Below are positions 16,041-36,208 of a DNA stretch of 64,000 nucleotides, piece after piece. Origin of the DNA: Escherichia coli (GTDB lineage: Bacteria; Pseudomonadota; Gammaproteobacteria; Enterobacterales; Enterobacteriaceae). The notes below the pieces were generated by a model. The model made no database searches and was not told the origin of the DNA. It saw only the letters and a program-made list of their open reading frames with translations. Made by a program: the position numbers and the translations under genes. Where the stretch lies: assembly GCF_003018255.1 (NCBI RefSeq), contig NZ_CP027440.1; one strand, given 5' to 3'. How positions within the stretch are numbered: the stretch's first letter is position 1; each line of letters starts with the position of its first letter.

Positions 16041-16691
<651 letters not shown>

Positions 16692-34448: not shown

Positions 34449-34737
34449 CATGGCCCCCTAATTCGTGTTACTAGACAACGTTATTCGAGGTTCAATGCGT
34501 TTTTATCTGAAGCAACTTCAGTATACCAATAAGTAAGGGTATTCACCGAATTTTTAAAGGGGGGAACAGATAAATTTTTGCTTTTAAGATTTATATGAAC
34601 AATAAAACAGCATGTCATTCATATTTTTTTAGCATATTGTGCAATTATTTTGAGGAAGTGTAGAAATTTTGTACTCACAATTCGCAAGTAAAATAAAAAA
34701 GCCGGGGCGACCCGGCAAAAACAAAAATCACTGCATA

Positions 34738-34983
34738 TTATTCGCTGACAAACCAGTCATCGGCGCTTTCCCACGTTTCCTGGAGAATTTCGCTAATGCG
34801 CTGTTTATCTTCTTTTGTCGCGCCAATAACCGATAAATTATTCGCTGCGGCATAACGTACCGATACGTGGCCTTCATTATCAGGAAACGCATACTGAATA
34901 CGGCGGGAAAGTTCGCCAGCCAGGGCGTCAATAGCCCCAGCTGGCAATGGAGAAGTTTTCGCTATGGTGACTTCAATTCGCAT
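34738..34983 (-). CDS. dinI: DNA damage-inducible protein DinI
   Basis: 81-aa product from ATG at 34983 (MRIEVTIAKTSPLPAGAIDAL...). Confidence 0.9.
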   Translation of the reverse strand: MRIEVTIAKTSPLPAGAIDALAGELSRRIQYAFPDNEGHVSVRYAAANNLSVIGATKEDKQRISEILQETWESADDWFVSE

Positions 34984-35002
34984 AATAGCCCCCTGTTGAA
35001 TA

Positions 35003-35021
35003 TACTGGTTATTTATACAGT
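35003..35021. promoter_or_regulatory. LexA box (SOS operator) of dinI
   Basis: ACTG-N10-CAG palindrome (tACTGgttatttataCAGt) 20-38 nt upstream of the dinI start. Confidence 0.6.
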
Positions 35022-35056
35022 TAAAATAACCTAATGACAACAGGAAGCTACGATTT

Positions 35057-36103
35057 TTATTGTTTAACGGACCAGCGTACCGTTTCCCCGGCGAGGAATG
35101 GCACCAGCGTGTCATCAGTCAATGCGATGCTTTCAGCAACCTGTTGCTCTTTGCGGACCAGTTCGATGAATGTGTCGTTGACCGGCAAGCCATAGAACTG
35201 TGGGCCGTTTACAGAACAGAATGCTTCAAAGTGCTGCAGAGCATTCATCTCTTCAAAGACGGTAGCGTAACTGCCCAGCGCGGTTGGGGCGTTGAAGCAG
35301 CCCGCGCAGCCGCAGCTGCTCTCTTTGCGATGACGTGCATGCGGCGCAGAATCCGTACCGAGGAATACGCGATTAAAACCGCTGGCGACCAGTTCACGCA
35401 ATGCCTGTTGGTGGATATTGCGTTTGAGGATGGGTAGACAATACAGGTGCGGACGCACGCCACCAACCAGCATATGGTTGCGGTTAAACATCAGATGCTG
35501 CGGAGTGATGGTGGCAGCCAGCCGTTCATTTCCGTCACGGACATAGTCGGCAGCGTCTTTGGTGGTGATGTGCTCAAAAACGACTTTCAGCGCAGTCAGA
35601 CGCTGGCGTAGCGGTTCCATCACGCTTTCTATAAAGCGCGCTTCACGATCAAAAATGTCGATATCTGCATGTGTCACTTCACCATGCACCAGTAGCGGCA
35701 TACCGATTTTTTCCATGCGCTCTAATACCGGCATGATTGCGTCAACTGACGTCACGCCGTGACTGGAGTTAGTGGTTGCGTTTGCCGGGTAAAGTTTTGC
35801 AGCGGTGAACACGCCTTCGTTAAATCCGCGCTCCAGCTCATTAGGGTCTAGTGAATCTGTCAAATAACAGGTCATCAATGGGGTGAAATCATGCCCGGCA
35901 GGTACGGCGTCAAGAATGCGCTGGCGATACGCCACGGCAGCCTCAACGGTGGTCACGGGCGGAGCCAGATTGGGCATTACGATAGCCCGTCCATAAATTT
36001 CGCTGGTATACGGCACGACAGTTTTTAACATGTCGCCATCGCGGAGGTGAAGGTGCCAGTCGTCTGGGCGGCGGATCTTTAATACCTGGGATGGTGCAGT
36101 CAT
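35057..36103 (-). CDS. pyrC: Dihydroorotase PyrC
   Basis: 348-aa ORF ([24 protein letters not shown]...) with HxH metal-binding motif. Confidence 0.95.
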
Positions 36104-36164
36104 TAATCTCTATGCTCCGGCTGAAGGGATGTTTTTGCCGGACACAAAGGATAAGCGGAAACGT

Positions 36165-36180
36165 TTTCCTTTGCACGAAA
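36165..36180. promoter_or_regulatory. PurR operator in the pyrC promoter
   Basis: GGAAAACGTTTCCGC palindrome resembling the PurR box consensus, upstream of pyrC. Confidence 0.5.
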
Positions 36181-36208
36181 AATAAAGGGCGCGAATGCGC
36201 CCTCGTGA

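Follow-up and report, generated by a model that had tools for sequence, protein, structure and literature searches.

The pyrC control region of Escherichia coli: a predicted terminator, a PurR box and a start-site switch within 105 bp

The 105 bp that separate yceB from pyrC, located at positions 36104-36208 of the window (the whole stretch of 64,000 nucleotides of E. coli DNA that was analysed) and read on the minus strand, very probably represent the characterised E. coli pyrC control region, in which three functions, namely a terminator, a PurR-controlled promoter and a start-site switch, are packed together; we put the probability of this reading at about 95%. This control region is already known, being curated in Rfam and covered by reviews. 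As a textbook case of regulation without a dedicated repressor it has little weight as a discovery, and its value here is that of a positive control, three overlapping elements and their mechanism having been recognised from raw sequence alone. For the sensing of nucleotides, the binding of PurR and the repression of translation we rely on the literature, and to these we add the anatomy of the region, its identity with K-12, the Rfam match, the folds, the conservation and the coincidence with a mapped start.

Identity, layout and conservation of the region

The intergenic region coincides exactly with the range picked out by the first-pass annotation, which had described three elements packed in about 100 bp. 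All three are present within the 105-bp yceB-pyrC gap, and the PurR box, the leader hairpin and the terminator are all on the minus strand (Table 1). The three sequence strings that it quoted were likewise found, that of the terminator having been read from the plus strand. Alignment with the K-12 pyrC promoter, which it had proposed as a check, turned out to be base-for-base identical across the intergenic region: in an alignment of 201 bp to K-12 MG1655 (K-12 coordinate = window coordinate + 1,086,504) the 105 bp are 100% identical, and the sole difference is a silent change inside yceB. The gene order solA-bssS-dinI-pyrC-yceB-grxB-mdtH is the same in the window and in K-12, and the ORF carries the name pyrC in the annotation of K-12 (b1062) and of over 5,400 E. 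coli genomes. pyrC is among the genes needed for the growth of ExPEC in serum (PMC12858057).

Table 1. Features of the pyrC-yceB intergenic region and its borders (window coordinates)
Feature	Position	Strand	Basis or remark
pyrC dihydroorotase ORF	36103-35057	-	ORF list; K-12 annotation b1062
pyrC start codon ATG	36103-36101	-	ORF list
yceB stop codon TAA	36211-36209	-	ORF list, sequence; K-12 yceB b1063; upstream edge of intergenic region
Predicted intrinsic terminator of grxB-yceB transcript	36204-36178	-	stem-loop and T-tract
-35 hexamer GTGCAA	36176-36171	-	3/6 matches to TTGACA; placed from the -10 and the 17-bp spacer length
PurR box AGGAAAACGTTTCCGC	36170-36155	-	16-mer filling the -35/-10 spacer
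-10 hexamer TATCCT	36153-36148	-	model positions 1-6 of Rfam PyrC_leader
CTTTGTG, upstream dyad extension	36149-36143	-	complementary to CATAGAG, 36114-36108
ttgtg	36147-36143	-	from the -10 to the start sites
Candidate start sites T6 C7 C8 G9 G10	36142-36138	-	numbered from the end of the -10
Hairpin 5' arm TCCGGC	36142-36137	-	folds of alternative 5' ends; Rfam consensus structure; CCGGC invariant 21/21
Hairpin loop	36136-36122	-	15 nt
Hairpin 3' arm GCCGGA	36121-36116	-	folds; Rfam structure; overlaps the Shine-Dalgarno
Shine-Dalgarno GGAG	36118-36115	-	11 nt before pyrC ATG
SD-to-ATG spacer CATAGAGATTA	36114-36104	-	11 nt
Rfam RF02372 PyrC_leader match	36104-36153	-	covariance model, full length

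At most one mismatch to the 105-bp region was found in 5413 of 5424 E. coli genomes, and for a 501-bp query extending into the coding flanks the identity is 95-99% in most E. coli genomes. In E. albertii the intergenic region is identical at 105 of 105 positions, the pyrC DNA at 89.6% (74% at third codon positions) and yceB at 88.4%. Judged from these comparisons, purifying selection on the full 105 bp is very strong.

Start-site switch and leader hairpin

When 801 bp were searched against all families in Rfam, there was a sole match, RF02372 PyrC_leader, with a score of 68.7 bits (gathering score 50 bits) and E = 1.2e-10, which covers model positions 1-50 of 50 and ends at 36104, directly before the pyrC ATG and on the same strand. 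In its consensus structure PyrC_leader has a stem of 5 bp, CCGGC/GCCGG, which closes a 15-nt loop. Set beside RF02372 and the pyrC promoter-leader of K-12 and Salmonella, the window has the same locus, 100% of the K-12 sequence and the same 5-bp stem, with no difference between them. The pyrC promoter-leader of E. coli K-12 and Salmonella is reportedly the subject of Wilson et al. 1987 and 1992, Sorensen et al. 1993 and Liu and Turnbough 1994; a literature search on the PyrC leader/RF02372 returned nothing relevant. When the first 20 orthologous loci were scanned (L002-L021, which leaves out L036, a second short-loop Citrobacter locus), the gathering threshold was reached only in E. albertii and Citrobacter werkmanii, both of which have short loops. 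The PyrC_leader model is narrow: many more genera retain the same arms, with longer loops between them.

TCCGGC and GCCGGA, on either side of the 15-nt loop, make up the CCGG...CCGG inverted repeat, which, as the first-pass annotation had claimed, overlaps the GGAG Shine-Dalgarno (36118-36115) with its 3' arm. Adjacent C and G candidate starts sit 6-10 nt downstream of the -10, and the 5' arm is complete only in transcripts that begin at T6 or C7. The mapped pyrC start, NC_000913.3 1122643 on the reverse strand (SMRT-Cappable-seq, PMC6131387 supplementary data), corresponds to window position 36139, which is G9, 9 nt downstream of the -10.

Folding of the alternative 5' ends (Table 2), also suggested as a check, behaves as the switch model requires, the predicted cost of opening falling from about 9-11 kcal/mol (T/C starts) to about 4-6 kcal/mol (G starts). 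The opening energy is a thermodynamic prediction of the cost of exposing the stretch from SD-3 to ATG+2. It was preferred to the mean unpaired probability of GGAG (folded with 30 nt of coding sequence), a measure that did not change monotonically and in which weak alternative pairings acted as a confounder. The difference in opening energy between C8 and G9 is small, 0.6 kcal/mol, and in the folding model the computed switch is really one between T6/C7 and G9/G10.

Table 2. Predicted folds of pyrC transcripts by start site
Start	MFE (kcal/mol)	Predicted structure	SD-to-ATG opening (kcal/mol)
T6	-10.7	6-bp hairpin	10.8
C7	-9.1	5-bp hairpin	9.3
C8	-6.0	4-bp hairpin	6.4
G9	-5.8	residual 3-bp stem	5.8
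G10	-3.1	hairpin gone	4.1

Compared with shuffled sequences, the energy of the short mRNA hairpin is not unusual (z = -0.4 to -1.0), and support for the hairpin therefore comes from its conservation, from the Rfam match and from published experiments. In the published model, as reviewed, a high CTP/GTP ratio favours C starts, the extra 5' C residues allow a hairpin sequestering the ribosome-binding site (RBS), and transcripts with G starts are translated (PMC6524683, PMC7818426). The lower translation of the longer transcript also alters its degradation (review PMC6524683). In the reading adopted here RNA polymerase can start transcription at any base of the run T C C G G, at a distance of 6-10 nt from the -10. 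At high CTP/GTP a C start would provide the 5'-CCGGC that pairs with the GCCGG over GGAG, by which ribosome binding would be blocked. At low CTP, that is under pyrimidine limitation, a start at G9 or G10 would truncate the 5' arm so that no stable hairpin could form and dihydroorotase would be translated. The start-site-switching translational control to which the first-pass annotation attributed the repeat is supported by the Rfam leader match, the reviews of the mechanism, the folds and the G9 start. The UTP-sensitive switches of pyrBI, codBA and upp resemble pyrC in that RNA polymerase senses a nucleotide pool without any repressor (PMC6524683). Those switches operate by slippage at T or A runs (with attenuation in addition in pyrBI), whereas in pyrC adjacent C and G starts compete and the outcome is read out in translation through the hairpin.

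A scan of one genome per species yielded 33 Enterobacterales pyrC loci, and an alignment of 21 sequences was made from the window and 20 Enterobacteriaceae and Erwiniaceae orthologues. All 21 sequences share TGCAA of the -35, TAT.CT of the -10, CCGGC, GCCGGAGC and ATGA without variation. The loop that joins the arms differs in sequence, and its length is 15 to about 37 nt in the alignment and greater in more distant Enterobacterales. The distance from GGAG to the ATG is 11 nt in E. coli vs 7 nt in most orthologues, a longer spacing that speaks against the reading. The arrangement of the -10, five bases and CC(C)GG is kept across Enterobacterales. In Photorhabdus the 3' arm is shifted to just after the Shine-Dalgarno (TGGAGCCGG) and still pairs with CCCGGC, and in Yersinia, Pectobacterium, Hafnia and their relatives the -10, the C-run and the G at position 9 are kept, with starts of the CCCCGCC type and other predicted pairings. 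A covariation test of the stem in the 21 aligned sequences was uninformative, the five core pairs never varying; a four-pair extension of the stem is 89% paired overall, and its covariation score, equalled by 70 of 500 shuffles, is not significant. On the evidence of these alignments, the start-site/hairpin module is ancient and widespread in Enterobacterales, and the Rfam model recovers only the short-loop forms of Escherichia and Citrobacter.

Two other readings of these motifs have to be weighed. Inverted repeats of 5-6 bp and an AAACGTTT core are each common, and the hairpin energy is unremarkable, as would be expected if the three motifs had nothing to do with one another and had arisen by chance in an intergenic stretch of no special kind. 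Such a coincidence is ruled out by the conservation, the Rfam match and the start-site data: the Rfam E value is of the order of 1e-10, the PurR pattern is expected just 0.15 times per window, the 105/105 identity with E. albertii stands against 74% at the third positions of pyrC, blocks of sequence are invariant in 21 aligned sequences, and the mapped start is at G9. It is also conceivable that the dyad acts mainly at the level of DNA or of mRNA stability, either as an operator for a pyrimidine repressor or as a 5' stem that protects from decay. The dyad indeed reaches 7 nt upstream of the starts, into DNA that is not transcribed from the pyrC promoter and that the mRNA hairpin model does not need, and the degradation of the longer transcript changes as well (PMC6524683). 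This explanation is nevertheless highly unlikely, as the 3' arm, which never varies, coincides precisely with the Shine-Dalgarno region and the folding differences follow the start site. No pyrimidine repressor protein is known in E. coli, and a protective 5' stem would raise the expression from C starts, not lower it. Published genetics, according to the reviews, assign the effect to translation (PMC6524683, PMC7818426).

Promoter and PurR operator

The pyrC promoter is of a weak sigma-70 type, in which GTGCAA and TATCCT are separated by 17 bp. It was not called by a simple consensus promoter scan because the -35 matches at only 3/6 positions; since the start site is mapped, this miss does not count against the promoter. 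Of the 17 bases of spacer from the -35 to the -10, 16 belong to the PurR box. The box was scored with a matrix built from the 28 ChIP-chip motifs that Cho et al. 2011 list in their Table 1 (PMC3159470), which constitutes an independent test because the 28-site table omits pyrC. At 17.0 bits the box is the top of about 128,000 positions in the 64-kb window and falls inside the range of true PurR sites scored leave-one-out (8.4-24.6 bits, median near 18.7). The pattern GNAAACGTTTNC occurs once in the 64-kb window, against 0.15 expected occurrences. The PurR-type palindrome reported in the first-pass annotation as GGAAAACGTTTCCGC is accordingly present and scores like real sites, its symmetry proving only imperfect; it has C where 27 of the 28 known sites have G (TTTCC, not TTTGC; the conserved G13). 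In our own view this departure plausibly explains a low PurR occupancy, and it fits the weak effect of PurR reported on pyrC, which is about 2-fold.

Like the operators of the pur regulon (purF, purT, purHD), the pyrC box is an imperfect palindrome of 16 bp that has CG at its centre and matches ACGNAAACGTTTGCNT, and it is likewise placed between the -35 and the -10, where the site lies in 44% of PurR-regulated promoters (Cho et al., PMC3159470). It differs from them at the near-invariant G of the right half (C) and at the last position (C, not T), as well as by the weakness of the repression and by having no ChIP-chip signal. pyrC is listed as directly PurR-repressed on the strength of mutations and of binding in vitro (Choi & Zalkin 1990; Wilson & Turnbough 1990, cited in PMC3159470 and PMC6245113), the repression being modest and comparable to the three- to fourfold down-regulation of carAB P1 (PMC6245113). 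PurR was missed at pyrC in vivo by ChIP-chip, for which the authors could give no reason (PMC3159470). On the present reading PurR, with hypoxanthine or guanine bound, would sit between the -35 and the -10 and modestly lower initiation.

The box scores 14.6-19.1 bits in 17 of 17 Enterobacteriaceae sequences (the window and 16 others) and less than 7 bits in other families of Enterobacterales. As it is confined to Enterobacteriaceae, PurR control looks like a later addition, restricted to this family, to the older start-site/hairpin module. The conservation of hairpin and PurR site across enterobacterial pyrC promoters, on which the first-pass annotation had made its interpretation depend, was thus found for the arms, the -10 and the start run in 21 of 21 sequences and for the PurR box in all 17 sequences from Enterobacteriaceae.

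The ChIP-chip data, in which 13 of 15 known PurR targets were recovered and pyrC was not among them (PMC3159470), raise the question of whether the PurR-like box is still an operator in vivo. It might have decayed, or be kept for another reason such as the geometry of the spacer, the effects of purines being indirect, for instance through an influence of the GTP pool on the choice of start site. The C in place of the G found in 27 of 28 sites and the modest repression reported would agree with this. We consider it unlikely, however, as the score of the box is within the range of genuine sites and the best in the window, and as the box is kept in all 17 Enterobacteriaceae sequences, while other families have the promoter too but fill its spacer with unrelated sequence. 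Binding in vitro and mutation of the operator are on record in the literature (cited in PMC3159470 and PMC6245113), and weak occupancy of a low-affinity site accounts for the ChIP-chip miss. The pyrD leader of E. coli and Salmonella, a separate locus outside the window, has CTP/GTP-sensitive starts, a 5' RBS hairpin and modest PurR repression in common with pyrC (PMC6524683, PMC3159470, PMC7818426). Its PurR box (CGGAAAACGTTTGCGT) is closer to the consensus and was detected by ChIP-chip, whereas the pyrC box was not.

Terminator and upstream dyad extension

A terminator scan found, 4 nt past the TAA of yceB and on the same strand, the start of an 8-bp stem with 6 GC pairs and a 4-nt loop, followed by UUUAUUUUU. 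The stem-loop, GAGGGCGC-ATTC-GCGCCCTT, occupies 36204-36185, and the T-tract, TTTATTTTT, 36186-36178. The fold of this region has an energy of -17 kcal/mol (z = -3.16), a value that 1 of 200 shuffles reached. From the end of the T-tract it is 1 nt to the -35 hexamer and 7 nt to the PurR box, in agreement with the statement of the first-pass annotation that the yceB terminator hairpin and its U-run are within 30 bp. The terminator string quoted there, GGGCGCGAATGCGCCC, is present as well, and needs correction in one respect: it is the plus-strand reading, the transcribed strand having GGGCGCATTCGCGCCC (36202-36187) followed by TTTATTTTT. From the hairpin and the U-tract we infer a terminator function; placed right after the yceB stop, they would end the grxB-yceB transcript. 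The structure resembles canonical intrinsic terminators in its GC-rich 8-bp stem, 4-nt loop and U-tract after a stop codon, and differs from them in that the U-tract of the pyrC region ends one base short of the -35 of the next promoter. A bidirectional terminator was rejected, as the plus-strand side continues with CGTGATTAAT, which lacks a T-run, and no gene converges on the region.

The transcription units in the SMRT-Cappable-seq data are grxB and grxB-yceB, both from a start at 1124081, with a separate start for pyrC, and no yceB-pyrC operon is among the units listed, an absence that is consistent with termination after yceB. The placement of yceB upstream of pyrC is shared by 18 loci, comprising all 16 Enterobacteriaceae orthologues together with Erwinia. 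About 12 of these 18 yceB-pyrC loci have a convincing GC-rich hairpin and T-run at the equivalent place, with unrelated sequences, as would be typical of terminator turnover. Over the 18 syntenic orthologues the yceB-pyrC spacing is 105-198 bp, the tightest, 105 bp, being that of E. coli, E. albertii and Citrobacter, and that of the other loci 115-198 bp. A literature search on a yceB terminator found nothing relevant.

The dyad around the pyrC leader is longer than the published mRNA hairpin. CUUUGUG, immediately upstream of the candidate starts, pairs with CAUAGAG, which is located between the Shine-Dalgarno and the ATG (Table 1). As CTTTGTG lies between the -10 and the starts, it is absent from the transcripts of the pyrC promoter. 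An RNA that includes the extension forms a stem of 13 bp in which a single G is bulged (-17.8 kcal/mol, z = -4.67) and which none of 200 shuffles matches, and the 7-nt extension adds -7.7 kcal/mol compared with a mean of -2.5 for random 7-mers (p ~0.01). RNA that reads through the terminator would form this 13-bp stem and thereby bury the whole ribosome-binding region. We tentatively suggest that the extension might act as an insulator, RNA initiated upstream being folded in this manner and only the G9/G10 transcripts of the pyrC promoter remaining translatable; support for this function is modest, and we regard it as possible though rather doubtful. If true, it would explain how terminator and promoter can be packed so tightly without leakage. 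Extensions of -7 to -9 kcal/mol are found in 11 of 17 Enterobacteriaceae sequences, and not in Citrobacter, Kluyvera or other families. In most such lineages the extension pairing is AGUGC/GCACU, and in E. coli and E. albertii the partner comes from a lineage-specific 4-nt insertion.

Leader variation within the Enterobacteriaceae

E. coli and E. albertii share a lineage-specific insertion of 4 nt between the SD and the ATG of pyrC (window 36104-36114; columns 95-104 of A2, the alignment of the window with 20 Enterobacteriaceae and Erwiniaceae orthologues), where the spacer reads GCATAGAGATTAATG, as against GCATATTGATG in Citrobacter. As a result of the insertion, the distance from GGAG to the start codon is 11 nt rather than about 7; a second GAG and the extended pairing partner also arise from it. 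For an RNA initiated upstream, folding predicts a 13-bp stem of -17.8 kcal/mol (z = -4.67). A comparable dyad extension, using other sequences, is present in 11 of 17 Enterobacteriaceae sequences. We propose, as a model, that this extension may silence read-through from yceB.

Of the 5,426 genomes in the E. coli collection, all but one or two match the yceB-pyrC region. Five records labelled as plasmids contain this chromosomal region. The match begins only at base 23 of the intergenic region in some strains, an indication that the 5' arm of the terminator varies.

Positions of the features discussed, in window coordinates
Feature	Position	Strand	Remarks
Dyad extension	CTTTGTG 36143-36149; CATAGAG 36108-36114	minus	the two pair; lengthens the dyad by 7 nt on the upstream side of the mapped start sites
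LexA-box-like CTGTATAAATAACCAG	35020-35005	minus	within the pyrC-dinI gap
Terminator 3' of dinI	34716-34699	minus	sole terminator in 34699-35060
Two abutting PurR-matrix matches	16051-16082	plus	AGGTTATCGTTTGCCC, 14.2 bits; AGGAAACCGCTTGTGT, 14.7 bits
Third PurR-matrix match	16283-16298	plus	12.9 bits; about 200 bp from the adjacent pair

Leaders of more distant Enterobacterales

Upstream of locus position 2001, the pyrC loci of Yersinia, Pectobacterium, Brenneria, Hafnia, Rahnella and Acerihabitans (L016, L018, L020-L023, L025, L028) retain TATCCT, the C-run and the G at position 9, CCCCGCCG replaces CCCGGC, and a PurR box is absent. A longer interrupted stem, which includes UCAGU/ACUGA, compensates in Pectobacterium and Brenneria, and the arm on the SD side in Yersinia reads GCGG, which matches CCGC.

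In Photorhabdus (L024, L026) the 3' arm GCCGG, some 15 nt before the pyrC ATG, follows the SD (TGGAGCCGGTTTC) and, unlike in the usual arrangement, does not overlap the 5' side of the SD. Its pairing with the 5' CCCGGC, which lies at the conserved start-site position, is nevertheless retained.

Other matches to the PurR matrix

The best PurR-matrix match of Enterobacter sp. Ag1, GTGCAAACGATAACGT (read on the other strand), is shifted in register by 4 bp and overlaps the -35 element; the pyrC ATG follows about 90 nt further on. The sequence around the conserved -35, GTGCAAAC, is itself similar to a PurR half-site (CGCAAACG), so that some species may have two overlapping boxes.

After the pyrC box, the best scores in the window belong to three matches that lie in the 3' part of csgD (ORF 16041-16691, minus strand), on the strand opposite to the gene. 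These are probably due to chance, since the list of Cho et al. (PMC3159470) has no PurR ChIP peak at csgD.

The pyrC-dinI junction

Between the pyrC stop codon (35059-35057) and the dinI ATG (34983) no terminator-like site was found on the minus strand. SMRT-Cappable-seq (PMC6131387) recorded a pyrC-dinI co-transcript starting at the pyrC start site, as well as a 3' end inside dinI, at K-12 coordinate 1121414 (window 34910).
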